Below are positions 22,684-47,211 of a stretch of DNA of 64,000 nt, in pieces. The translations under genes were made by a program, and so were the position numbers. The stretch's first letter is position 1. The number at the start of each line of letters is the position of its first letter. Origin of the DNA: Synechococcales cyanobacterium VAR_4_metabat_354 (GTDB lineage Bacteria > Cyanobacteriota > Cyanobacteriia > Cyanobacteriales > Chamaesiphonaceae); NCBI GenBank assembly GCA_031414775.1, contig JANOQI010000036.1:1-64000 (forward strand). The letters are read 5' to 3'. The notes below the pieces were generated by a model. It ran no database searches. It was given only the letters and a program-made list of their open reading frames with translations, and had not been told where the DNA came from.

Positions 22684-24531
22684 CTAAAACGACCAAAACA
22701 GCCCAGCAATCGTCAAACCGAGGAAGCCCACTCCGATCGCGATCGTCAGAAAATAGCTTTGTACTTGACCAGAAGTGCCATATTTCAAACCTTCACTGCT
22801 AAAAATTGTCGCAAAACCCACCGAGTTGACTAAGCCATCGACTATGTATCGATCGAACCAAGCCACCAACTGCGACATTTGATAAATTGCCCAAACCACT
22901 GTCACATCGTAGAACTTCTCCACATAAAAATCGTAGGTCAGCAGCTCTTGAATCCAAGGGACGGGAAACTTGAAGGGAGTGCGATCGATCAAAACAGCGG
23001 CGCGACAATAAAACCACCAACCACCAATCAAACCCAGCAAACTAGACAAGCTGATAGAGGCATATTCCCACAGACTAATATCATCTAAGTCGGGCAAAAG
23101 CGACAGTTTGGTCATAGCTGCGGGCACCAGCAAGGTAAAGATGGTCAGGAATACCATAGGCACTGCTAAAGGCCAAGGAACTTCCGGTGCTCGCCGGGTC
23201 TTCGGCTGGTTTGCCCCCAAAAATACCAACCCAAACACGCGGGTCAGGTTAAAAGCCGTCAAACCATTAACCACCAGCAAAACAGCAATCAGCCAGGGAT
23301 ACAATCGCAGATCTTCTAGACCCTCCTGGAAAGCCCAAAACCCCCCAAAAGGAAAAATCCCGATCATGGCCAGAGTACCCACGACATAAGCCAGGGTAGT
23401 AGCAGGCATACTCTTGGCCAACCCACCATATTCAGTCAAATCCTGATTGTTGGTGGTCAAAATCACACAGCCCACACTCATGAAAATCAGCGCCTTGGCA
23501 ATGGCATGAGCAAACAACAATAGCAGTGCAAAACTAATCCACTTAGCTCCGATCGCAATAAACACCAAACCCAAGTAGGCACTGGTGGAATAAGAAATAG
23601 AACGCTTAATATCGATTTGGGCGATCGAGACCAATGTTGCCCCCACTGCTGTCACTGTGCCGATCGCAATTAAAGTATTAGTCACCACCGGCGATAAATA
23701 CAAAATCGGGTGTACCTTAATCAGAATGTAGGCACCACCAGTTACCACCACTGAGTTTCGCAAAATTGAAGCCGGACTGGGGCCCTCCATCGCTTCATCC
23801 AGCCACAGATGCAAAGGAAATTGAGCACATTTGCCGATCGGACCTGCAATTAAAGCCAAACCAATCAGAGTCGCCGTCAAAGGCGAGATATCAGTAGTAT
23901 CACTCCAGTCATACAAGTCATTAAAATCCAAACTACCCGCAATACTAGACAGGGCAATGACTCCAGCAAACAGTACAATATCCCCCGCTCGCTTGGTCAA
24001 AAAAGCATCCCGCGCCGCTTTAACTACCAACGGCTGGGCATACCAAAAACCCACCAGCAGGTAGGTAGACAGAGTAAGTAGTTCCAGTAACCCATAGCTC
24101 ACCAGCAACGAATCACTAATGGCGACAGCACTCATCGCCCCTTCAAAAAAGCCCACCAACGCAAAAAATCTGGCTAGAGCCCAATCTTTTTCCATATAAC
24201 CCAAGGCAAAAACCTGAGCAATCAGACTGAGACCAGTCACTGACTCCATCGCCCCGACACTCACCGCCGACAGCTCAAAAGTGAGGTTCAAATCCAAACC
24301 AGCCACCGTCAGCCAATTAACAACAATGTGATGGGGGGCTTGATTCCAAACCAGCCGAAACACAGCAGTACCATGAATAAAAGCAACCACTGTCATCAAA
24401 ATATTCAAATATGCCGCTGGTCTAGGGCCTGTCCGCCGTACTAGCCTTGTCACCCACGGCAGGGTGAGCATAGCCCCGATCAGACCATAGCAAGGTATCA
24501 ACCAACCGGTGTCTAGTAAGAACTGCTCCAT
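22684..24531 (-). CDS. ndhF4: NDH-1 subunit F4
   Basis: RRTGPRPAAY, KCAQFPLHLWLDEAMEGP. Confidence 0.88.
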   Translation of the reverse strand: MEQFLLDTGWLIPCYGLIGAMLTLPWVTRLVRRTGPRPAAYLNILMTVVAFIHGTAVFRLVWNQAPHHIVVNWLTVAGLDLNLTFELSAVSVGAMESVTGLSLIAQVFALGYMEKDWALARFFALVGFFEGAMSAVAISDSLLVSYGLLELLTLSTYLLVGFWYAQPLVVKAARDAFLTKRAGDIVLFAGVIALSSIAGSLDFNDLYDWSDTTDISPLTATLIGLALIAGPIGKCAQFPLHLWLDEAMEGPSPASILRNSVVVTGGAYILIKVHPILYLSPVVTNTLIAIGTVTAVGATLVSIAQIDIKRSISYSTSAYLGLVFIAIGAKWISFALLLLFAHAIAKALIFMSVGCVILTTNNQDLTEYGGLAKSMPATTLAYVVGTLAMIGIFPFGGFWAFQEGLEDLRLYPWLIAVLLVVNGLTAFNLTRVFGLVFLGANQPKTRRAPEVPWPLAVPMVFLTIFTLLVPAAMTKLSLLPDLDDISLWEYASISLSSLLGLIGGWWFYCRAAVLIDRTPFKFPVPWIQELLTYDFYVEKFYDVTVVWAIYQMSQLVAWFDRYIVDGLVNSVGFATIFSSEGLKYGTSGQVQSYFLTIAIGVGFLGLTIAGLFWSF

Positions 24532-27725: not shown

Positions 27726-28268
27726 ATGAATTTGCTGCCATCTATGCCCCTCAACGATCGACCCACTGCTGTTAGTGGGAATGTGATGGTGCATCCGACA
27801 GCAAATGTGGCTACCGGGGTGATGTTGCACGCTGATGCGGGTAGTCAGTTGGTAATTGGAGCTGGTGCTTGTATTGGTTGGGGGTGTGTTTTGCACGCTC
27901 ACAACGGTACCTTAGTAATTGGAACTGGTGTGATTCTGGGGATGGGCACACTGGTGATCGGCAATAGCCAAGTGGGGGATTATGCTTGTATTGGGCCAGC
28001 CACCAGCGTCATTAATAGTAGTGTTGCAGCGCGAGCCATCGTACCACCTAATTCTTTGATTAATGCTGGTCAGCAATTACCAGTAGCCGAAAAAGTAGAA
28101 ACAAAATCTCAGCCAGTAGCAGCCCCCGGGGAGCCGCCGCTAGCCTCCACACCGGCTAAAACTGAAGCACTAGCCTTAGCAACCCCCATTGGTACTCCCA
28201 TCTATGGAAAGAAAAGTTTAGAGCGACTTCTGGCTACTTTGCGTAATGAAAAACCAGATTTGGAGTAG
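27726..28268 (+). CDS. ccmN: CcmN
   Basis: Hexapeptide repeats, linker, C-terminal IYGK..LERLL peptide. Confidence 0.88.
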   Translation: MNLLPSMPLNDRPTAVSGNVMVHPTANVATGVMLHADAGSQLVIGAGACIGWGCVLHAHNGTLVIGTGVILGMGTLVIGNSQVGDYACIGPATSVINSSVAARAIVPPNSLINAGQQLPVAEKVETKSQPVAAPGEPPLASTPAKTEALALATPIGTPIYGKKSLERLLATLRNEKPDLE

Positions 28269-28352
28269 TTGGGATTGATTCGGGCTAGATCAATTTATGA
28301 CCGATAGCACAGCAATATATACTTCTGATCAGCACTCCATTCGAGGTTCGCA

Positions 28353-29126
28353 ATGGCCGCCGCTAGACAACGTTCTCCTGATGATTTTACCGATCAGGCT
28401 CTCGGCTTGATTTCGACCCAAAGCTTTCCGGCGATCGTGGGAGTGGCCGATATGATGCTAAAGTCTTCTGGCGTAACGCTAGTGGGCTATGAAAAGATTG
28501 GAGCAGGTTATTGTACAGCAGTAGTGCGCGGGACAATTGCCAATGTAAAAATTGCAATCGAAGTCGGCATCGATACCGCCGAAAAGTTTGGTCAAGAAAT
28601 TTCTAGCACGATTATTGCCCGTCCTTTGCCTAATTTAGAATTAGTACTGCCGATCGGCAGCATTCTAGCGTTACTGACCAAGGGGAACGGCTCCAACAAG
28701 CTAGCGGGCAAAGCGATCGGACTCTTAGAGACCAGGGGATTTCCCGCACTGGTCGGGGCTGCTGATATTATGATGAAGGCCGCCGATATTCAAGTGGCCG
28801 CCTACGAAAAAATTGGCGAGGGCTTGTGTACAGTGATCATTAGAGGCGCTGTCACCGATGTGGCGATCGCCGTGGAAGCCGGGATGCAAGAAGCCGAACG
28901 CATTGGGGAACTGAGCGCCGTAATGGTGATTCCTCGCCCCTTGGACGATCTGGAAACAACTCTGCCAGTCAGTCAATACTGGGTTGAGAAACCCTTAATG
29001 CTACCGTTAGCCTCACCAGCCGTAGTAATACCACAGCAGCTAGAGCCAGCGTTAGAATTAGTGGAGTTGCCGCTGGTAGAATTCCCACAGCGGCTACAAT
29101 TGCCCAATGCCGAAGACAATGAGTAA
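28353..29126 (+). CDS. ccmO: CcmO tandem BMC protein
   Basis: Two BMC domains. Confidence 0.9.
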   Translation: MAAARQRSPDDFTDQALGLISTQSFPAIVGVADMMLKSSGVTLVGYEKIGAGYCTAVVRGTIANVKIAIEVGIDTAEKFGQEISSTIIARPLPNLELVLPIGSILALLTKGNGSNKLAGKAIGLLETRGFPALVGAADIMMKAADIQVAAYEKIGEGLCTVIIRGAVTDVAIAVEAGMQEAERIGELSAVMVIPRPLDDLETTLPVSQYWVEKPLMLPLASPAVVIPQQLEPALELVELPLVEFPQRLQLPNAEDNE

Positions 29127-33502: not shown

Positions 33503-34159
33503 ATGTTGACGACCTCTACCCAATATGATCGATCACTATCAACATTAGAATCAAACGAACAACGCACTGTCTTGCATCATATTAGCTGGCAATTGTTTGA
33601 GCAGCTTCTGACCGAAATTGGCGATGATCGTGCCATCCGATTGGCTTATTACCAAGGAATTCTCGAATTTACGACCCCGCTTTTTGCCCACGAACAGAGT
33701 AATCGTCTGATTGAGCGGGTAGTGAATACCTTAGTAGAAGAGCAAGGGATCGAGTGTACTCCGGCTGGTTCGATGACCATCAAACGTCCCGATCTAGTTG
33801 CCGGAAAAGAGCCTGATTCTTGCTTCTACATTCAAAATGAGCATCTGGTTCGGGATAAGGTGCGTTTGGATTTCAGTCAAGATCCCCCGCCAGACTTGGC
33901 GATCGAAGTAGATATTACACATAGTGCGATCGATCAATTACTGCTGTATGCCGCTTTGGGTGTCCCCGAACTTTGGTGCTACGATGGCCAGATTTTGACT
34001 TTTTATCAGCTAGTCGATGGTGCGTATATGGCAGTAGATCTATCGCCTACTTTTCCTGAGCTAGCCCCAGCCAGGGTTTTAGATTTTTTGGCAGAATGTC
34101 GATCGATTGGGGTGAGTAGTGCTGTTCGATCGTTGCGTCAGTGGATTCAAACGATGTAA
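33503..34159 (+). CDS. Uma2-family (DUF820) PD-(D/E)xK protein
   Basis: ISWQ.FE, EPDSCFY, PPDLAIEVD, YAALGVPELW. Confidence 0.9.
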   Translation: MLTTSTQYDRSLSTLESNEQRTVLHHISWQLFEQLLTEIGDDRAIRLAYYQGILEFTTPLFAHEQSNRLIERVVNTLVEEQGIECTPAGSMTIKRPDLVAGKEPDSCFYIQNEHLVRDKVRLDFSQDPPPDLAIEVDITHSAIDQLLLYAALGVPELWCYDGQILTFYQLVDGAYMAVDLSPTFPELAPARVLDFLAECRSIGVSSAVRSLRQWIQTM

Positions 34160-34250: not shown

Positions 34251-34871
34251 CTAACGATTTTGGCCGCGAGGAACAAACCGAATTTCAATTCGCCGCCTTG
34301 CATCGTCAGCAATAACATTCTGTGATGCTAGTTTTCCGGAGGGTAGGTATAGTTGAGCCGCAGAATATGCCCGAAATTTAACCTCGTCCAATTTTTTTGT
34401 TTGCTGCAAAAATTGGACAACTGCTATAGCCCTCATGAGTCCTAGATCAGCATTAGAACCAGCTTTTAAATCAGTGATTTTGCCTTTCCCTGTAGCTGCT
34501 GAGGTGAGTTTCCCATCGAGATTACTGGCATTGCTAATTCCCTGACTATCGGTGTGACCGATTACTTGGATAAAGTCGATATTATCTTTCTTTGTTGCGT
34601 TCTCAATTTCGGGTGCAATGTTAGTCTCTATATACTTTTTCAGATCTGGTGTTAAAGCAGCACTTCCTGATGGGAATTTGAAGTTTCCAGATTTTTCGTC
34701 AATGATGATTGGAGAAGCAGATTTTAGTTTTTGGCTTATGGATAGTGCTTGTACAATATTGACAAGTAGTAGGAAACTAACAATCATAAAAGCATTTGAC
34801 ATTAAATCAGTAAATGCCTGGAATACATTTAAGTCTTCTTCATGGTTATATCGATCAATTTGCCTGGACAT
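34251..34871 (-). CDS. ZorB/MotB-like protein (single TM + OmpA-like peptidoglycan-binding domain)
   Basis: ATG 34871; AFTDLMS with conserved Asp before TM; FPSGSA, VIGHTD, NADLGLMRA, RRRIEI. Confidence 0.82.
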   Translation of the reverse strand: MSRQIDRYNHEEDLNVFQAFTDLMSNAFMIVSFLLLVNIVQALSISQKLKSASPIIIDEKSGNFKFPSGSAALTPDLKKYIETNIAPEIENATKKDNIDFIQVIGHTDSQGISNASNLDGKLTSAATGKGKITDLKAGSNADLGLMRAIAVVQFLQQTKKLDEVKFRAYSAAQLYLPSGKLASQNVIADDARRRIEIRFVPRGQNR

Positions 34872-34893
34872 ATTAGTATTTATTTGAATTTCT

Positions 34894-37074
34894 TTAGTTT
34901 GAGGAGATGTTGAACATACTATTTTTATTTGATCCCAGCTCTGATTTGTCAAGTACTGTTATTAATTTTGTGAAATGCTCTCGATCTCTCAAGCTCATCT
35001 GTGCGAGATGTTCCTTCATTGCAGCGAGTAGCTGCTCGTGAAAAGATCGATCGGCTGTGATTTGCTGATTCAAGATTTTTTGTAACTCCTGCCAACTCGA
35101 TCGATTGACTTCTTTTAGATTTTGTACTAGAGATTGAGTGGTATTTAGTGCTGTTTGGTGCTGTCGATCAAAATTAGCTATAGTAGTCTTGGAAGATTCT
35201 GAAACTTGCAGAGTGTTTTTGCTCAGGTTAGCTACTTCGCCCCCAAACTGTTGAAGAGTGATGGCTGATCTATTAATAGCCGTGATTGCTGGTTCTAAGT
35301 TGGCTACCACTGGTTGGATCTGTTGAGCCGATCGGCTGAAAACATCTGTTGATTTGGCAAAATCAGTTTGAGCTGCTCTCCATATATTTAACCCAGCCTG
35401 AATCTGTTGAGATGATTGACTAAAAGCATCTGTTGATTTAGCAAATTCAGCTTGAGATGTTTGCCATGTATTCACTCCGGCCTGTACATGCGGTAATAAT
35501 TCCACTAAAGTTTGTGTTTGTCCTTCTAAAGATGTAGCTACTTTTTGAAAGAGAGTTGCCCCATTACTAATTGTTTCAGATGCTTTGTCAATCTTACTTG
35601 TAGAAGATTGCCATGTTTTGTATACAGATTGGGCTAACTCTGCTGCTGTTTTGTTACTGCTGGTAATACCTTCAAGTGATATTTCTAAAGTTTTAGTAGA
35701 ATTAGTAAAAGCCTGTTGACTGGTATTCAGCTCTGTTAAAACTCGATCAATATTATGAACGATGTTGTTATTCTCTACCTTGCTTGCACCAGAGACAAAA
35801 CTAGCTACTCCAGTCTGGAGATGGGGTACCAAGCCTGCCATGATCTGGGTTTGAGATTCCAGCAAATTAGCTGCTTGAGAAAAGGTCTTTGCCCCATTTT
35901 CTATAGTTCCAGATGCAGTACCAATTTGTATGATGGATGCATCCCAACTCTGATAAACTTTTTCTGCGAGTTGGGCAGCGTTCTGGTTACTACTAGTGAT
36001 TCCCTCAAGTGAGGTTTCTAAAGTTTTAGTAGAATTAGTAAAAGCCTGTTGGCTTGTGTTCAACTCGGCTAAAGTTCGATCGATATTTTGAACAATATTA
36101 TTTTGTTCAAGTCCATGAGCTGCTGCCTGAAAAGTATGTACACCCGTTTTAAATTCTTGGAGTGAATTGGTAAAAATTTGATTTTGAGCTTGAAGGGAGT
36201 TTGCTGCCAGCTCAAAGGTGGTTGCCCCGGTCGCTATAGTACCAGCTGCATTGGAAAAATTTGTGTACACATTTTCTGCAATCCGATTTATTTTGCTGCA
36301 TTCCGTAGCAATTTGATTTGCCGCCTTGCCGAAAGATGTCTCTAAAGCTCTACCTACGTTCTCATGGAATCTGAGCAAAAATTCTTCTTGTTGTTTAACC
36401 ATGCGATCGATCGCTGTGTCTAGTCGGGTATTTCCTTCAAAAGTTGGTTTGTAAATGTTGTCTAGATAGTCTTCCAAGCCAGCAACTAATTGATGCTTGG
36501 CGACACTTGTATTCCAGATGGTATTAAATATAGTTAGAAGCGAGCCAAATGATAGCCCAAATAGACTGGCTGAAAAGGCAACTCCCATATCCCGTAAAGC
36601 TGGCTGTAGTCCTTGAACTAGTTTTCCGATGTCAGGATTGCTGGTATCCAGGCTAGTTATGACGCTGGAGATATTAGTTAAGTTACTGGTGATCCCTAGG
36701 AAAGTACCAATTAGGCCAAAAGCAATTAGTAAATTCGGTAAAACCCTAGTGATGCTATCTGCCCGATCATATTGGACTTTAATCCCCAAATAAGATAGTT
36801 TTTCATCTTTGTATACACTATCGATGAGAGCGATCGTATTAACATGTTCTAATTTTTGACTGGCTTTTTGGTAACGACTTCTAAGCCGTTCGACAATTGG
36901 TGGTTGAATTCCGTCAGCATGATCACCTGATAATAATCGGGAGATGCGATCGTTCATTATCTGAAGCTTTCGGTGCAGTCTAAACCGCAAGAATCCTACT
37001 ATGATAGCTGGCATAATGACCAAAAATAAGATCGAAAGCTTAGTTTCGGAGGGTATTAATGTAAAAATTTGCAT
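34894..37074 (-). CDS. ZorA/MotA-like membrane protein with ~530-aa repetitive helical tail
   Basis: Three TMs incl. LPNLLIAFGLIGTFLGI and MGVAFSASLFG; long Ala/Gln/Ser/Thr-rich tail. Confidence 0.78.
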   Translation of the reverse strand: MQIFTLIPSETKLSILFLVIMPAIIVGFLRFRLHRKLQIMNDRISRLLSGDHADGIQPPIVERLRSRYQKASQKLEHVNTIALIDSVYKDEKLSYLGIKVQYDRADSITRVLPNLLIAFGLIGTFLGITSNLTNISSVITSLDTSNPDIGKLVQGLQPALRDMGVAFSASLFGLSFGSLLTIFNTIWNTSVAKHQLVAGLEDYLDNIYKPTFEGNTRLDTAIDRMVKQQEEFLLRFHENVGRALETSFGKAANQIATECSKINRIAENVYTNFSNAAGTIATGATTFELAANSLQAQNQIFTNSLQEFKTGVHTFQAAAHGLEQNNIVQNIDRTLAELNTSQQAFTNSTKTLETSLEGITSSNQNAAQLAEKVYQSWDASIIQIGTASGTIENGAKTFSQAANLLESQTQIMAGLVPHLQTGVASFVSGASKVENNNIVHNIDRVLTELNTSQQAFTNSTKTLEISLEGITSSNKTAAELAQSVYKTWQSSTSKIDKASETISNGATLFQKVATSLEGQTQTLVELLPHVQAGVNTWQTSQAEFAKSTDAFSQSSQQIQAGLNIWRAAQTDFAKSTDVFSRSAQQIQPVVANLEPAITAINRSAITLQQFGGEVANLSKNTLQVSESSKTTIANFDRQHQTALNTTQSLVQNLKEVNRSSWQELQKILNQQITADRSFHEQLLAAMKEHLAQMSLRDREHFTKLITVLDKSELGSNKNSMFNISSN

Positions 37075-37130
37075 TTGTTAACTATCAGGTTGTGTTAATG
37101 ACTAGGCTGCTATTTATGGAAATCTAGAGA

Positions 37131-40100
37131 TTATGAAGAACGAGCATCTACTACCTCTGCATCGATCGAATCTCCATCGTTAGTTAATTCACTAACTGGG
37201 CGTTGAGATTGTAAGGTTCTATTGTGGTTAATTGGATTGGCTTGAGCATCTTGTGCTAACTTATCTAAGTAGCTCCATAGCCGCTTCAAAACTCCATTTG
37301 TGGCTGGTCGATCGAGTGTCGCTTCTTCACCCAATACAATATTAATTTCAGGGTAGTTGGGGCTATTTTTAGAGAGCTTATCTACCTGTTGAATGAACGA
37401 TCGAAGTTGACTCAAATAGACTTCTGTCCATTTACTGGGATCGTTTTGAATCTCAGTGATGATACTATTGCGTCGATCTCTCAGGCTCTCAGCAACGCCA
37501 CTAGCTTTAGATATTTGCTCTAGGGCTTCACTCCAAATTAGACTGAGTTGAATCGAGCTACTTCGATCGCGGAAGTCATCATATACTTCGTACAAATAAC
37601 AATTATCCTGTTGCGTTAATATTCCGAAAGCCAAGCAAGCATAGAAAGCGTCTTGCATCTCTTCCATCCGTCGCGCATCAGGTGGAATAATTTCCGAGAA
37701 TATTTGTTGATAGTCATTATGAATTCGCGCTCTATTTTGGGAGCATTCGCGATCGTAATGTTCACGCATTCGATCGATCCCTTGGATTAACCGCAAGGGG
37801 AAAGCGGCATACTCATTGACGATTGTTATTTCACTATCATTTTGACTTGATTTAAGTACTGATTCGGCAATTCCAACATTTCTAGTTAGCAACTCTTGTA
37901 ATTGTTGACTGGCGCGATCATCGGTTTGTTTGAAGGCAATAATTTCAGATTTATTGCCACCATCATCAGAAAAATATCCATCTCTGGTTAATAATGGTAG
38001 TAGTGGCTGGGCTTCACTAATGATTTGTCGCATTCTTCGCTCGGCATTACCAGAAGCCAGTGGATATTTCTGAAGAAATCTTGCCATGACTGGTTGTAAT
38101 GAGCTAATCGCTTGAGTACCAAATAGTTTATCGATCGTGGCAGTAATATTAGTGCCTACCAATCTTTCATCGACATCGCGGGAGCCGACAAGGTAGTGAA
38201 TTGTCGATCCAGTTGATGTCTTTTCCTCATCAGTAACTCGAACTAAGAAGTACATTAATGACTGTTCGACGAATGTGAACTTCTCGGCGAGAATTTGTCC
38301 ACTGATATCAATGAGAATAGATTTCTCATTCTGTTCTGGTAGAAATTCCTGGTAGCAAATATTTGCATCTTCAGGGGAGAATAACGCTTCACCAGTAATT
38401 CCATCCGGATTCAGTCGTTCTAAGTCTTCACACCGCTTCTTGTAATTTAGCTCGACTGCGACTAATAATTGGTCGATCCAGCCAGCTTCTAGGATGAGCG
38501 ATCGAATAAAGCTCGATACTTCACTGGCAATGACTAACGCCGTTTTATAAAGCTGATAATCAAAGTTCTCCTGGATTAACTTTTTAGTGGTGGTGACAAT
38601 CTGTGTAGCTTCAATCTGAAAGTCTTTGTTTTTTTGCTTGTTATTATCTAATACGCCCAGAAAACCCTTTTTCTCCTCAATATCTTGCAATCGACGCTCG
38701 GCATTACGCCATTGAGTATCGAGATCTTCTTGACTAGATAAACCACCTTTGTTTTGGATATAATCTTCCAGCCCACGCTGATATTCATTAATATGTGTCA
38801 AGATCGCTTCGAGCCAACCACGGGCACTATTGAGTGAAAATTCGGGATGAGATGGTGTAAGTAGTTCACCAAAAAAGTGACCGATATCATTTCTAAGCAG
38901 ATTGCTAAGTTGTGGTTGAGTTTTTTGAATCCTGGTTAACCAAGCACCGCGAATATCATCAGTTTCTCCAGGCTGGACTTTCCGAAATTGGGCGCGGGTA
39001 TCGCTGCGGAGTCGTTGGAGTAATTGCGATCGATCATCCGATTTCTGCACCATTCCAATTTCTTGATCGATTTTGGTACCCCAAGCTTTCAGAGCTTGAG
39101 CGAATGTTTTCCCATTATCCTGAACCATTCCTTGTAGACGATGAGGGAATTCTCGATCGATGCTAGAGTCACCCCACTTCGACAAAAAGCGATTGAGTAA
39201 TAGCCCTGGGTCTGGACTTTGCCCAATTCCTCGGAGCCAAAAATTTACTAGTCGCCGACTAACATTAGTCAATGACATTTGCACAATTCGTTCTTGAGGC
39301 GAATAGATCTTGGCTAATCCAAACGTCAGATATCGTTGGACATTGCGGCGAGGATGGCTGTCTAAACGGGTGAGTTTATCGCGGAAATTATCCTTCTGGC
39401 TTTTAATTACCGAAGTCAATTCATCGCCAAAGTCGAGGAAAATTTTGTGAGCGACGACATTGCAGAGCTTGTTTTTATCCAGAATCCGATAATCTGTCGC
39501 CGTGCGATTAGACAACACATAAGTGAAATCAAACGGCGGACGATCTTCATCCACCGAAATTAACTGCTGAGGATCGTAACAGACTTTAAACCGCGTATTA
39601 CTAGCCGCATAATGGTTTAACTCCTTCAATGCTGCATAGACATTGGCATTCATGCTGGGAGTATCGCCATAAAGTTCTGGACTAATTACCCAGTAGCCGA
39701 CTAATTTATTCTCAATATCTCCATAAGCCTTTCGCAGTGCATACGCCACATCCAAAAACATCCCGCTGCCAGTACCACCACAGAGTGAGCCGGCGACAAA
39801 AATGTTTAAACCAGACTCCACACCAAATCCTTGACCCAGCATGGCTTGTTCGTGCCCTCTGGTGCGATTTTCAGCAGTCTCAAATGCAGCTTTAATTTTG
39901 CGATAATTATGGAAGAAAGATAGTCTCCCCACGGGGCGAATCCCCCCAGCACCATCTTCGATCGCTTTCACATTCCGAACCAATTGTGGTGGCAACCAGC
40001 TTCTAATATGATCGTAGGGACTTTGACGCTCGAATTCACCCTGCGACTCCAATCCACCGATCAATTGGTCGATTTCTTGACTGCTCATGGTAGCAATTAC

Positions 40101-40343
40101 CCGTTCAGCAGGTGTGAACAAAATATTCTCACCCCGATAGGTATTCCCCGTACTCAAACCGGAAATGTCACTCGCACCTTTATCGGCATCAATATGGACA
40201 AAACTCACGACTGGCAAGGCATCGAGTTTGCCATAGCGATCAATAATCAACCGCCGAATCTGCATCAAAATATCTCGACCGGTGCCGCCCAAGCCGATGC
40301 AAAGAGTTCTCTGAATAGTTCGTGATTCTGTGGTTGGAGACAT
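37131..40343 (-). CDS. Large tubulin/FtsZ-like GTPase (Tubulin_2/FtsZl1 type) with long helical C-terminal region
   Basis: IGLGGTG, GAGGIRPVGR, GSLCGGTGSG tubulin signature, NVYAALKEL. Confidence 0.85.
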   Translation of the reverse strand: MSPTTESRTIQRTLCIGLGGTGRDILMQIRRLIIDRYGKLDALPVVSFVHIDADKGASDISGLSTGNTYRGENILFTPAERVIATMSSQEIDQLIGGLESQGEFERQSPYDHIRSWLPPQLVRNVKAIEDGAGGIRPVGRLSFFHNYRKIKAAFETAENRTRGHEQAMLGQGFGVESGLNIFVAGSLCGGTGSGMFLDVAYALRKAYGDIENKLVGYWVISPELYGDTPSMNANVYAALKELNHYAASNTRFKVCYDPQQLISVDEDRPPFDFTYVLSNRTATDYRILDKNKLCNVVAHKIFLDFGDELTSVIKSQKDNFRDKLTRLDSHPRRNVQRYLTFGLAKIYSPQERIVQMSLTNVSRRLVNFWLRGIGQSPDPGLLLNRFLSKWGDSSIDREFPHRLQGMVQDNGKTFAQALKAWGTKIDQEIGMVQKSDDRSQLLQRLRSDTRAQFRKVQPGETDDIRGAWLTRIQKTQPQLSNLLRNDIGHFFGELLTPSHPEFSLNSARGWLEAILTHINEYQRGLEDYIQNKGGLSSQEDLDTQWRNAERRLQDIEEKKGFLGVLDNNKQKNKDFQIEATQIVTTTKKLIQENFDYQLYKTALVIASEVSSFIRSLILEAGWIDQLLVAVELNYKKRCEDLERLNPDGITGEALFSPEDANICYQEFLPEQNEKSILIDISGQILAEKFTFVEQSLMYFLVRVTDEEKTSTGSTIHYLVGSRDVDERLVGTNITATIDKLFGTQAISSLQPVMARFLQKYPLASGNAERRMRQIISEAQPLLPLLTRDGYFSDDGGNKSEIIAFKQTDDRASQQLQELLTRNVGIAESVLKSSQNDSEITIVNEYAAFPLRLIQGIDRMREHYDRECSQNRARIHNDYQQIFSEIIPPDARRMEEMQDAFYACLAFGILTQQDNCYLYEVYDDFRDRSSSIQLSLIWSEALEQISKASGVAESLRDRRNSIITEIQNDPSKWTEVYLSQLRSFIQQVDKLSKNSPNYPEINIVLGEEATLDRPATNGVLKRLWSYLDKLAQDAQANPINHNRTLQSQRPVSELTNDGDSIDAEVVDARSS

Positions 40344-40357
40344 GATAAATGGCCTGA

Positions 40358-41479
40358 TTAGTTAATATTGATAGTTAGTTCCAAGTCGCAAGACTGATGG
40401 GGATAATTTAAACGAATACGTTTGCCTGTCAAGATTTGACGTTGAGTGACTTCGCTATTTCGGTAATGAATTGGTAGCTCACCACTTGGCTCTAAGAACA
40501 ACTTATTGCCCTCTCGCCGCAGATAGCCTCGAACATCTTGCCCCCGACATTCGATATCGCTGCCAATGCCCAGCCTTTGCTTATGGCGGAGATAACAAAT
40601 CTGTGGCTCAGAATCATCACCACCCGCAATTGTTAGCTTCCAGGCTTGCTGGAGACTGCGCCAATGTCTAAACGACAAAATGCCAATAGCTAGTGTTGTT
40701 AATATTCCCAGCGAACTTAGTAAAATGGGCAGCCAAAGCTGTTGGAATAAATAACCATTCACTAAACAAGTTTCTTTCCCACCGGGAGCCGGAGTACAAA
40801 ACTCCTGCACTGTTGGCGGAATATCCACAATGCTCAAGTTGTAATTACTGATTTTTTGCGATCGTAATTTTAATGGCAGCGCATTGAGCCATTCTTGCCG
40901 CTCCTTACTAGCCACAGAGTTTTGCTGGCGAAACGGACTATTTGCTGGCGTTTCGACCCAAGTCTGTGACTTAATTCCTGGCTTGGTTAATAACGGCGCA
41001 TCCGTCAACCAAACGACCGATTGAGTTCTTATCCCTTGATTGGCCGTGAGCCGACACTGATTTAATTGAGCTAAATTCTTGTAGATGCTACTTTCAGCTT
41101 GCTGAATATCAGCATTTTGTTGGCCAGAGCGAGATGTCAGCGGCAGTGTTTGCAGAATTCGATCGACATCCTCCGGCTTTCCCTGAAAACGAATACCAGC
41201 AGTAAAAGGATCTACCTGTGGCTGAAGTGGATTCACCTGAGAAGCAAAAGGCACAACATAAACAGAGTCACCTTTCTGCAAACTGTCTTGGATGATTTGT
41301 TTCAGACGCAAACGCCCTTCATCATTCAAACCGACACTTTCAGTTAGATCGATCGCCAGCACCACATCACGACCTTGACCGACAGAAGCTAGCTGAAGAC
41401 CATTTTTTTGCAAGTCAGAGAGTTTTTGCTGGCTAGGGGCAACTTTTTGGCAACTTACTTGCACAAGAGAAATGCTCAT
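40358..41479 (-). CDS. vWA-domain membrane protein with C-terminal TM and small beta-rich domain
   Basis: DVVLAIDLTESV (MIDAS-like), VVPFAS, VVWLTD; TM LWLPILLSSLGILTTLAIGILSF. Confidence 0.78.
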   Translation of the reverse strand: MSISLVQVSCQKVAPSQQKLSDLQKNGLQLASVGQGRDVVLAIDLTESVGLNDEGRLRLKQIIQDSLQKGDSVYVVPFASQVNPLQPQVDPFTAGIRFQGKPEDVDRILQTLPLTSRSGQQNADIQQAESSIYKNLAQLNQCRLTANQGIRTQSVVWLTDAPLLTKPGIKSQTWVETPANSPFRQQNSVASKERQEWLNALPLKLRSQKISNYNLSIVDIPPTVQEFCTPAPGGKETCLVNGYLFQQLWLPILLSSLGILTTLAIGILSFRHWRSLQQAWKLTIAGGDDSEPQICYLRHKQRLGIGSDIECRGQDVRGYLRREGNKLFLEPSGELPIHYRNSEVTQRQILTGKRIRLNYPHQSCDLELTININ

Positions 41480-41510: not shown

Positions 41511-41861
41511 TTAGGTGATCGGTTTCACACCATCTTCAAATATTTTATCAGCTTCAGATAGAGTACTTTCTAGATTACGTGCACCATGGAGAACGCGAAT
41601 AATGTCGATCGTATCTTCAGTGAGTTCATAGAGAACCAGGTAGTTCGGGAATCCTTTGACGGTGTATTGACGAACTTGGACAACTTCTGGATTCGTAAAT
41701 CCGCTAAATCTGCCAATTCCAGGAGATTTGGCAATAAGTTGGAATGTGGCTTCGGCAGCATAGATAAAGCGATCTCCTACATCTAGGTTTTCATGGCTGA
41801 TGTAGGTGGAAATATCGATCAGGTCTTGAATGACGATCGGGCGCTTGACCAGTTGTGGCAT
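41511..41861 (-). CDS. parE: ParE/RelE-family toxin
   Basis: DLIDI..YI, PGIGR, YLVLY, IIRVLHGARNL. Confidence 0.85.
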   Translation of the reverse strand: MPQLVKRPIVIQDLIDISTYISHENLDVGDRFIYAAEATFQLIAKSPGIGRFSGFTNPEVVQVRQYTVKGFPNYLVLYELTEDTIDIIRVLHGARNLESTLSEADKIFEDGVKPIT

Positions 41862-41863
41862 GG

Positions 41864-42112
41864 TTATTTGCCTTGGCTGATATTTTGGCGTATGGTAGCA
41901 CGGATGTGCGACCAGTCATCTAGGGTTATGGGAGTGGCAGAGCCAGATTGAACACCTTCAAGAGCGAGGGTTTCAAGGCTGGCTTGGCGAGTCTGATCTT
42001 CTTTGATAAGGGCTTGAATATATTCGCTGGCAGTGGCAAAGTGACCAGAGTCTATTTGGGTTTGGAGATAAGTGGTGACTTCTTCGGGGAGGTTGATGGG
42101 GAGGGTATTCAT
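41864..42112 (-). CDS. parD: ParD-family RHH antitoxin
   Basis: INLPEE..IDSGHFATASEYIQALI..LEGVQSG. Confidence 0.82.
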   Translation of the reverse strand: MNTLPINLPEEVTTYLQTQIDSGHFATASEYIQALIKEDQTRQASLETLALEGVQSGSATPITLDDWSHIRATIRQNISQGK

Positions 42113-46611: not shown

Positions 46612-47211
46612 CTATGCCCAAATCGAACTCAAATCCAGTGTGAATCCAGGCAAAACATCCTCACCACTCAGCGTCAAAGGATTTGCCAGTACCTCTACAT
46701 CACAATCTAGTCGATAGATTTCAACCTGACGATCTCGCGGATTTATCAACCAACCCATCCGCACGCCATTATCTCGATATTCCACCATTTTTGCTTGTAG
46801 CGGCGGCAATCGATCAGTTTCAGATCGCAACTCAATTACAAAATCTGGAACAAGTAAGGCAAATTTCTTTCGTTCCTCCTTACTTACAGCTTCCCACCGC
46901 GAGAGTTCTACCCAAGCTGCATCAGGGGATCTTTTACTACCATTCGGCAACGTAAATACAGTCGAAGAGCTAAAAGTCTTACCTAATCGCGTTTGACGGT
47001 TCCAAATGCCTAAATCTATGCCCAATTCAGATTCATAATTACCACTTTCTACGCCTACTGGTGGCATGACAACTAAAACTCCTTGGGCAGTTAACTCAAA
47101 CGATCGATCGGGATTTGCTTCACACACACGCTCGTACTGTTCGGCAGTAAATTTAACCGTACTGAGATCTACTGAAAGAGGATCTAATTCGGCAATCGCA
47201 ACGTTGGTCAT
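46612..47211 (-). CDS. Uma2-family (DUF820) protein
   Basis: RSPDAAWV, PDFVIELRS, EYRDNGVRMGWLINP. Confidence 0.92.
   Translation of the reverse strand: MTNVAIAELDPLSVDLSTVKFTAEQYERVCEANPDRSFELTAQGVLVVMPPVGVESGNYESELGIDLGIWNRQTRLGKTFSSSTVFTLPNGSKRSPDAAWVELSRWEAVSKEERKKFALLVPDFVIELRSETDRLPPLQAKMVEYRDNGVRMGWLINPRDRQVEIYRLDCDVEVLANPLTLSGEDVLPGFTLDLSSIWA

Follow-up and report, generated by a model that had tools for sequence, protein, structure and literature searches.

Organization of the locus

We analyzed a window of 64,000 nucleotides (positions 1 to 64,000 of the forward strand of contig JANOQI010000036.1) from the assembly GCA_031414775.1 of Synechococcales cyanobacterium VAR_4_metabat_354. 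Between 34251 and 41479 it carries, on the minus strand like all operon features given below, four co-oriented open reading frames (ORFs) in the order g1-g2-g3-g4. In this operon a ZorAB-like stator has been recruited into a long-known, unexplained gene cluster built around the tubulin-superfamily GTPase FtsZl1; judged from sequence, the products may form a machine joining a motor to a cytoskeletal protein.

The first gene, g1 (40358..41479), encodes a protein of 373 amino acids (aa) that combines a vWA domain, a single transmembrane (TM) helix and a predicted FHA-fold domain, as delineated from the ORF, an AlphaFold2 (AF2) model, Foldseek and hydropathy. It is followed by g2 (37131..40343), the FtsZl1/Tubulin_2 GTPase of 1070 aa, which lacks a TM segment and has a conserved C-terminal region of ~700 aa (Pfam and alignment); g3 (34894..37074), a ZorA-like stator A subunit of 726 aa (PADLOC, Foldseek and hhalign); and g4 (34251..34871), a ZorB/MotB-like B subunit of 206 aa when counted from the ATG of its relatives (PADLOC, Pfam and hhalign). 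An earlier note, made from the letters of this DNA alone, had singled out four tightly spaced, co-oriented genes here, and the ORF coordinates agree with it, including the intergenic gaps of 14, 56 and 22 bp, the last of which depends on the ATG start for g4. No convincing promoter or terminator emerged inside the operon from a consensus scan: promoter-like sites were fewer than in shuffled sequences and terminator-like sites about as frequent as in them. The four-gene arrangement is far beyond chance; the same order and strand recur in 57 of 79 related loci.

A tailed stator A subunit and its OmpA-like partner

The g3 protein has three hydrophobic segments (residues 13-31, 111-129 and 165-183 in a hydropathy scan) and a long helical tail, as the earlier note had described it. 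Its motor part (aa 1-207; 36454..37074) is modeled by AF2 as TM1, three helices with a beta-hairpin (92-101), TM2, TM3 and the base of the tail, with a predicted local distance difference test score (pLDDT) of 80-90 across residues 1-207. The cytoplasmic tail of ~500 aa (aa 218-711; 34942..36423) is all helix by DSSP at low pLDDT; it is repetitive, including an 84-nt repeat in 1.9 copies, and varies in length among relatives, the A-subunit family spanning 517-784 aa at 20 loci. The tail is the fastest-evolving part; at one locus (L002) the identities are 92% for the tubulin-like protein, 80% for the vWA protein, 71% for the ZorB-like protein and 57% for the ZorA-like protein. T124 in TM2, S170 in TM3 and a LEDYLDNI motif at the tail base are invariant, and by eye the first two sit at the position of the Thr/Ser filter of ZorA.

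The mechanically called ORF of g4 extends to a TTG at 34952 (233 aa), and 27 aligned loci place the start of its relatives at the ATG at 34871, which is residue 28 of that ORF. The protein consists of a TM helix (34737..34817), recognized by alignment and hydropathy, with an invariant Asp (FTDLMS, D22 in the 206-aa numbering) and an OmpA-like peptidoglycan-binding domain (34272..34709), so that both elements that the earlier note had seen in it are borne out. F20, T21, D22, M24 and S25 are invariant in 27 sequences; Pfam OmpA matches residues 93-193 of the 233-aa ORF (E 2.3e-6), and the domain has the invariant motifs GHTD, N..DLGLMR and RRRIE.RF. About 10 residues separate the TM helix from the OmpA-like domain in the window protein; in a few relatives a coiled-coil insert lengthens this stretch.

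PADLOC, Foldseek and hhalign all favor the ZorA/ZorB architecture that had been proposed for this pair. The PADLOC ZorA1 model matches g3 with a best E of 4.8e-13, covering TM2 to TM3 and the tail base, the ZorB1 model matches g4 (E 1.1e-9), and the ZorA chains 8qyk, 8qyd and 8qyh head the Foldseek matches of g3 (prob 1.0, E 5e-3). Pfam MotA_ExbB (PF01618) gave no match to g3 at E <= 0.1, nor at E <= 0.01 in a search of its own genome, whose two PF01618 genes sit elsewhere than the operon. NCBIfam gave no match for g3 and only sub-threshold ones for g4 (MotB, OmpA and PRK09039), and a full-length g3 profile run against PDB chains returned noise from coiled coils and apolipoproteins, ZorA being reached at E 0.53. 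A motor profile (A6) was made from residues 1-250 of g3 in 23 sequences and compared by hhalign with a genuine ZorA of the same phylum, that of a genome (G348) in which PADLOC detects consecutive zorA (702 aa, E 1e-35), zorB (3e-35), zorC (2e-19) and zorD (1e-196). The two aligned with a probability of 96.3 (E 1.5e-9, 160 columns, 29% identity, LEDYLDNI included), whereas a MotA-like protein reached 57 and the source genome's own two ExbB/TolQ-like PF01618 proteins 25 and 5.5. The g4 profile scored alike against ZorB (94.2) and a MotB-like protein (93.6), and reached only 1.2 with an ExbD/TolR-like protein. These profile comparisons support a grouping of the pair with ZorA/ZorB or MotB rather than with ExbBD/TolQR. 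A search with g3 residues 1-260 against 1.84 billion representative sequences recovered 953 proteins at E <= 0.001, of which 84 reached E <= 1e-30, and among 42 distant full-length relatives scanned, 36 match ZorA models (E <= 1e-5) and 14 match PF01618 (E <= 0.001). The pair is thus ZorAB-like, yet scores far below genuine Zorya proteins.

In the E. coli Zorya complex (ZorA5B2, PDB 8QYD), ZorA has three TM helices, helices H1-H3 with a beta-hairpin and then a tail, and its length, as read from the names of truncations, is 729 aa (Hu et al., Nature 2024, PMC11946911). The 726-aa g3 protein matches this layout in its three TM helices, its helices and beta-hairpin and its ~500-residue tail, and g4 resembles ZorB in its TM Asp of the essential type and in an OmpA-like wall-binding domain that follows the TM helix almost without a linker. 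The operon differs from type I Zorya in having a Tubulin_2 GTPase and a vWA-TM-FHA protein as partners instead of ZorC/D, ZorE or ZorF/G; in placing the A and B genes last, whereas they come first in zorABCD; in the E value of the ZorA hidden Markov model (HMM), 1e-13 for g3 versus 1e-35 for a genuine ZorA; and in the coiled-coil insert that some g4 relatives have between the TM helix and the OmpA-like domain. That no zorC/D/E-like gene is adjacent, as had been stated earlier, agrees with the absence of any PADLOC family match to g1 and g2 and with the flanking genes, which are ParDE, MetH, Uma2 and a phosphonate ABC transporter.

MotAB and PomAB likewise pair an A subunit with a B subunit bearing a TM Asp and an OmpA-like domain, and g4 fits a MotB-like profile as well as it fits ZorB. 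MotA, though, has four TM helices and no long tail, unlike the three TM helices and ~500-aa tail of g3, for which the MotA-like match stays at the intermediate hhalign value given above, and MotB carries a plug and a linker. Photosynthetic cyanobacteria are not known to have flagella. ExbBD and TolQR share a three-TM A-subunit fold with g3, but differ from the pair in the long tail of g3, its lack of a PF01618 match, the OmpA-like domain of g4 and the low hhalign probabilities.

Two further observations concern ZorA-like proteins elsewhere in the phylum. The genome that supplied the genuine ZorA belongs to a small-genome, probably non-photosynthetic member of the phylum, and its complete type I zorABCD (L099, G348:C33:1-12000) adjoins IetA-like and Cas4-like genes. 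Photosynthetic cyanobacteria also have a second long-tailed family positive for the ZorA HMM (ORFs of 735-749 aa, E ~1e-17 to 1e-18; G275:C1:79795, G056:C116:12689, G307:C178:43559, G008:C1:2288841 and G299:C52:71924), which is distinct from the tubulin-linked one; G056 carries both.

An FtsZl1 GTPase with a long C-terminal region

Within the tubulin superfamily, FtsZl1/Tubulin_2 proteins form a deep branch of no known function, which in the literature consulted serves as an outgroup or root or else is set aside; a 2023 survey of FtsZ and tubulin took the Tubulin_2 group only to root the tree and considered a direct relation between its history and that of the family unlikely. The g2 protein is a clear member, with a Tubulin_2 domain (PF13809; aa 14-366, 39246..40304) at E 7.4e-107. 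The tubulin motifs noted earlier in this protein of 1070 aa fall within the domain as GLGGTG (17-22) and GSLCGGTGSG (185-194, with GGTGSG at 189-194), and both are invariant in 27 cyanobacterial g2 sequences; by eye, E241 is the putative catalytic T7-type residue. The match to PF00091 (E 0.0033) lies below that family's cut-off. Canonical FtsZ and tubulin have an FtsZ_C or Tubulin_C domain, whereas this family has neither and carries a 700-aa extension. Invariant positions are spread along all 1070 residues in the 27 sequences, a hydropathy scan finds no hydrophobic segment, and g2 is the sole Tubulin_2 gene of the source genome (3.56 Mb, 64 contigs). For the C-terminal ~700 residues, Pfam gave no family match, no solved relative was found and a profile search of PDB chains returned coiled-coil noise; in the ESM Atlas, residues 380-1070 matched other Tubulin_2 clusters alone (0.78-0.82), which is a lead only.

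By analogy with FtsZ and its FtsA and ZipA tethers, the operon may be said to place a GTPase with intact GTP loops beside a bitopic protein able to tether it. The Tubulin_2 family is not known to polymerize.

A vWA-TM protein with a predicted FHA fold

The g1 protein was modeled with AF2 from a 28-sequence alignment (pLDDT 86). Its N-terminal part (aa 1-240; 40760..41479) has a vWA fold with Foldseek matches to the vWA domains of ITIH1 (6fpy) and complement C2a (2i6q) and a candidate metal ion-dependent adhesion site (MIDAS), D44-x-T46-x-S48, T123/D124 and D160, whose residues are invariant or nearly so in the 28 sequences; it has no signal peptide. A single TM helix follows (aa 250-268; 40676..40732, from a hydropathy scan). 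The predicted fold, the MIDAS-like motif and the one TM helix bear out the earlier description of g1 as a vWA protein with a TM segment, without support from Pfam in the window protein, for which no family was matched; VWA_2 was reached by two of the 28 family members, at a best E of 0.0048. A profile search of PDB chains with g1 gave no meaningful match.

FHA domains are eleven-strand beta-sandwiches with phosphothreonine-binding Arg, Ser, His and Asn residues. The C-terminal part of g1 (aa 280-373; 40361..40642) is predicted to adopt this fold, a feature absent from the earlier note: its top Foldseek matches are the FHA domains of Rv0020c and FhaA (structures hit 2lc1, 3po8 and 3oun; prob 1.0, E 3e-4, TM-score to target 0.59-0.64), Rv1747 also being matched, and R317 and R322 within it are invariant in the 28 sequences.

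Over these sequences, the 15 residues before the TM helix contain on average 1.1 Lys and Arg and those after it 4.2; therefore the FHA side is probably cytoplasmic and the vWA side outside, in the periplasm. The extracytoplasmic vWA domain that the earlier note had proposed is thus plausible, and in its favor a reviewer of Makarova and Koonin (2010, PMC2875224) detected signal peptides on all three FtsZl1-linked vWA proteins that he checked, each from a Gram-positive genome; the topology is left as probable because the cyanobacterial protein has no signal peptide. We do not rely on disulfides to place the vWA domain in the periplasm. Cys228 and Cys238 are invariant, and Cys10 and Cys142 co-vary in 26 rows of the alignment (17 with both, 8 with neither, 1 mixed), but the 8 rows with neither form one clade (Nostocales) and the FHA side also has conserved cysteines.

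Conservation and distribution in cyanobacteria

A locus survey in which one genome per species was scanned returned 79 cyanobacterial loci. All four genes occur in the same order and on the same strand in the 57 already mentioned, and the conservation of gene order expected by the earlier note is thereby established across cyanobacteria; by their coordinates, 18 of the other 22 are interrupted by a contig end. The operon is found in Nostocales, Microcystis, Pleurocapsales, Trichodesmium and Chamaesiphon. Among 401 sampled genomes of the phylum, a ZorA-like gene was present in 60 (41 of 152 genera) and a Tubulin_2 match in 80. Where the best ZorA-like hit reached E <= 1e-55, 37 of 40 genomes had Tubulin_2 within ~4.5 kb on the same strand. 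The ZorA-like gene was not found in the sole other sampled genome of the source family, nor in any of the 33 genomes of one large family. Because it was not found in 341 of the 401 genomes, the operon is dispensable and is an accessory module rather than core housekeeping.

Several variants were seen among these loci. Two genomes of one genus (G295 and G335) have a ZorA-like gene and no Tubulin_2 match at all, and a shorter ZorA-like paralogue (ORFs of 382-408 aa) lies away from Tubulin_2 in four others (G185:C190, G165:C4, G271:C116 and G097:C62). In Microcystis sp. BLCC-F210 (L076, 9253-9762), a C-terminal tubulin fragment precedes the ZorA-like gene and there is no vWA gene, so that this copy is probably disrupted. 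A possible lineage-specific fifth component in Nostocales is a same-strand gene of 421-837 aa lying ~190 nt downstream of the ZorB-like gene at L063 (12533-15043), L040, L042, L043, L045, L056, L061, L069, L072, L074 and L075; it is absent from the window, and in the two copies scanned (L061 and L063) it matched no Pfam or PADLOC family.

Earlier description and relatives in other phyla

The FtsZl1 family goes back to Makarova and Koonin (2010, PMC2875224), whose proposal was a membrane-remodeling system with vWA, GTPase and OmpA-family partners. Additional file 5 of that study lists a cyanobacterial operon of vWA (COG2304), FtsZl1, 'B7' and COG1360 'flagellar motor protein', with tabulated loci in Anabaena variabilis (Ava_1847-1850), Cyanothece PCC 8802 (Cyan8802_4287-4290), Microcystis NIES-843 (MAE_58760-58800, with B7 split) and Trichodesmium (Tery_1709-1705). 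The window operon is the same operon: Tery_1709, 1707, 1706 and 1705 (379, 1090, 563 and 263 aa) lie inside one of our loci (L031, NC_008312.1) with identical lengths, and g3 matches the B7 gene there at E 3e-83. Contrary to the earlier note, the system is therefore not undescribed, and whereas that note treated the tubulin-vWA link and the stator as separately known, the 2010 table has both together. The table further enters the Deinococcus radiodurans genes DR_0538-0536 and those of D. deserti as FtsZl1, 'MotA/TolQ/ExbB membrane protein' and OmpA (PMC2875224).

In Additional file 6, B7 is described only as a 'membrane-associated protein' and the OmpA-like partner (representative DR_0536) is ascribed beta-stranded transmembrane domains; the main text discusses the OmpA-family partners as beta-barrel porins or adhesins and does not mention MotA (PMC2875224). 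FHA proteins and Ser/Thr kinases recur beside FtsZl1 in the 2010 table. The FHA fold of the cyanobacterial vWA protein is not noted in that account, and Zorya was then unknown. What appears to be new here is the reading of B7 and COG1360 as a ZorAB-like tailed stator, together with the FHA domain. Outside subscription papers and bioRxiv supplements, our literature search turned up no publication connecting Zorya or ZorAB to tubulin or vWA, nor any that names the orthologous genes, and a search for tubulin-like proteins in defense islands returned nothing relevant.

On plasmid 2 of D. deserti, a Tubulin_2 gene (1070 aa) is followed by a 411-aa match to the ZorA model (E 1.6e-7) and by an OmpA protein matching ZorB models; because of this trio, the tubulin-stator link is not confined to one phylum. 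Other arrangements lack the stator. The 2010 table has vWA and FtsZl1 pairs without it in Bacillus and actinobacteria (PMC2875224), and on a plasmid of Meiothermus taiwanensis (L082, 6318-12751) a vWA gene, a Tubulin_2 gene and a 679-aa gene without a recognized family sit between genes for HmaC (Swt1-HEPN and DUF499), PDC-S01 and BrxL, a neighborhood that forms a defense island. On plasmid p2 of Azospirillum sp. TSA2s (L083), a 1214-aa Tubulin_2 protein adjoins two caspase-family and three OmpA-family genes, with no vWA gene annotated. The Deinococcus, Meiothermus and Azospirillum cases are single examples; several Deinococcota copies of Tubulin_2 lie on plasmids.

Genomic neighborhoods and the question of defense

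To assess the surroundings of the operon, we collected up to four ORFs on each side of it at 16 cyanobacterial loci of different genera (124 ORFs). By Pfam they are mostly housekeeping genes, including alanine dehydrogenase, phycobilisome core, ATP synthase, PsbO, release factors, tRNA synthetases and ribosomal proteins, with psbO synteny in two Nostocales loci; a MazEF pair, two Uma2 genes, XisH/XisI with helicases and a TnpB are also among them. PADLOC matched 11 of the 124 at E <= 1e-10, a figure that has no background rate for comparison. We judged six of these to be generic cross-hits of ABC ATPases or methyltransferases and five to be plausible defense genes, namely a type II restriction enzyme, a dGTPase, PDC-S44, a PbeA-like helicase and PDC-M42C. 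No defense island surrounds the operon in the 16 loci, and PADLOC detected no Zorya effector in the operon itself; the defense role put forward by the earlier note has no direct support in cyanobacteria, though the patchy distribution and the plasmid copies keep that reading alive. A role in motility or secretion was dropped, there being no linked pilus, gliding or secretion gene in these neighborhoods.

A possible trans-envelope machine and the alternatives to it

The gene content, the domain folds, the ZorAB grouping, the synteny and the co-occurrence of a tubulin with ZorAB-like proteins in a second phylum invite a common interpretation: a single trans-envelope machine in which a ZorAB-type unit and the vWA/FHA adaptor control the assembly of FtsZl1 at the membrane, whatever the trigger. 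We consider this general mechanism to have an even chance of being right. In such a machine, g3 and g4 would form a ZorAB-type unit, probably of 5:2 stoichiometry and proton-driven. With its channel Asp and an OmpA-like domain close to the membrane, g4 could anchor the unit to peptidoglycan, while g3 would cross the membrane three times, carry a beta-hairpin in its membrane-proximal domain and extend a helical tail of ~500 residues into the cytoplasm. The same membrane would be spanned by g1, its putatively metal-binding vWA domain most likely periplasmic and its FHA fold cytoplasmic, and g2 would be the cytoplasmic GTPase of the tubulin superfamily. A change in the envelope, for which phage, wall damage or another envelope event are candidates, might cause the stator to bind the wall and let ions through; the moving tail, together with the FHA adaptor, could then recruit FtsZl1 to that spot on the inner membrane or switch its assembly. 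The sensor half would thus be Zorya-like and the effector half cytoskeletal instead of a nuclease. All contacts among the four proteins and the direction of signaling are inferred, as is the tubulin-like protein's role as the output of the motor, which the earlier note had proposed. A predicted complex of full-length g1 with g2 residues 1-620 scored 0.00, a result that speaks neither for nor against a contact.

Several results weigh against this interpretation. As to the stator, a VIA fold search of g3 gave ExbB (Z 10.6), ZorA (10.3) and TolQ (9.9) as tied, and the ZorA HMM PDLC00601 is unspecific, for it matches MotA-like ORFs of ~300 aa in 138 of 217 other-family genomes of the phylum at E 1e-16 to 1e-27 and g3 more weakly, at 3e-9. 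The model of the tail, with its low confidence and helix breaks, does not establish a continuous pentameric coiled coil. As to g1, Pfam FHA was detected in none of the 28 family members, the canonical FHA residue pattern of GR, SxxH and NG is not recognizable by eye, and an outward vWA domain of 240 aa is hard to explain in a protein that has no signal peptide. As to the linkage, at least one partner gene is lacking despite room for it at four loci (L029, L035, L036 and L076), which are true exceptions to the conserved order, and three genomes (G074, G295 and G335) have a ZorA-like gene without an adjacent Tubulin_2 gene.

The first alternative, which is the reading of the earlier note and a special case of the trans-envelope machine, is an anti-phage system, a further type of Zorya in which ZorAB senses an attack on the envelope and the GTPase and vWA-FHA protein replace ZorC/D, ZorE or ZorF/G. 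The ZorAB grouping of the stator pair, the fast evolution of the tail seen at L002 and the patchy occurrence, in 60 of 401 genomes and within genera in, for example, 1 of 19, 8 of 9 and 3 of 8, would all suit such a system, as would the ParDE pair and Uma2 gene flanking the operon in the window, the Meiothermus trio between HmaC, PDC-S01 and BrxL, the caspase-family genes beside the Azospirillum Tubulin_2 and the Deinococcota plasmid copies. The Meiothermus and Azospirillum modules, however, lack the stator pair and are uninformative on the ZorAB-linked form; PADLOC is blank for g1 and g2; only ~5 of the 124 neighboring ORFs are plausible defense genes in a Pfam picture of housekeeping; the A and B genes come last, unlike the zorABCD order; and a search of 50,697 phage records gave one weak match. 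We know of no anti-phage activity for the tubulin-linked operon, and taken together these points make the reading unlikely, if still a live one.

The second is a constitutive apparatus for membrane remodeling or envelope maintenance, along the lines of the 2010 proposal for FtsZl1 operons, in which the stator, like Tol-Pal, would anchor to the wall and supply energy, with no sensing of invaders. This would fit the housekeeping neighborhoods with their psbO synteny, the wide spread among cyanobacteria and the clade-wise vertical inheritance reported there by the 2010 authors (PMC2875224). It sits poorly with the operon's not being found in 341 of 401 genomes, among them all 33 of the large family and the other genome of its own family, and with disrupted or split copies such as L076 and the B7 gene of Microcystis NIES-843 in the 2010 table (PMC2875224); moreover, the short linker between TM helix and OmpA-like domain in most members resembles the 'normally disengaged' design of ZorB more than a permanent anchor (PMC11946911). 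We regard it as doubtful. That two independent modules, vWA with FtsZl1 and the stator pair, are merely adjacent and do not cooperate is highly improbable: stator-free vWA and FtsZl1 pairs in Bacillus, actinobacteria and Thermales, as well as the ~385-aa ZorA-like paralogues and the ZorA-like genes of G295 and G335 without an adjacent tubulin gene, speak for it, but the closely spaced genes on one strand, a gene order shared by 57 of 79 loci from distantly related cyanobacterial orders and the adjacency of tubulin, A and B genes in Deinococcus, where other genes replace the vWA gene, speak against it.

A bolder form of the trans-envelope machine is tentative, and we would bet against it: a proton-driven, ZorAB-type rotary sensor that steers local GTPase assembly through the vWA-FHA adaptor, as an immune response or a response to envelope breach, an FtsZl1 polymer being laid beneath the wall site disturbed by phage or other injury. 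If true, a coupling of this kind between motor and cytoskeleton would be a first in bacteria, the 15-year-old FtsZl1 family would gain its first function, and Zorya-like sensors would be a portable front end for non-nuclease effectors. The mechanism of Zorya was resolved only in 2024: its tailed ZorAB motor signals a disturbed envelope to soluble nucleases (PMC11946911). With FtsZl1 wired to a ZorAB-like unit in cyanobacteria and Deinococcus, the vague notion of membrane remodeling becomes testable through the channel Asp, the tail length, the GTP loops and the FHA domain; the linkage further points to tailed stators as sensors that can be reused with different outputs.

Other features of the window

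Upstream of the operon lie a ParD/ParE pair and then metH, and downstream a Uma2 gene and a phosphonate ABC transporter. The ParE toxin (116 aa) and ParD antitoxin (82 aa) genes (41511-42112, minus strand) are directly upstream of g1 on the strand of the operon. Two Uma2-family genes, of the restriction-endonuclease fold, bracket the region (33503-34159, plus strand; 46612-47211, minus strand); Uma2 genes also occur near a Microcystis locus (L022) and are given for Nostoc punctiforme in the 2010 table (PMC2875224). Farther away, a hexapeptide-repeat protein gene followed by that of a shell protein with two BMC domains (27726-29126, plus strand) looks like part of a carboxysome cluster. The segment 22001-24000 has an AT skew of 0.31 and a GC skew of -0.15, far outside the rest of the window, and a 615-aa ORF lies there (22684-24531, minus strand).

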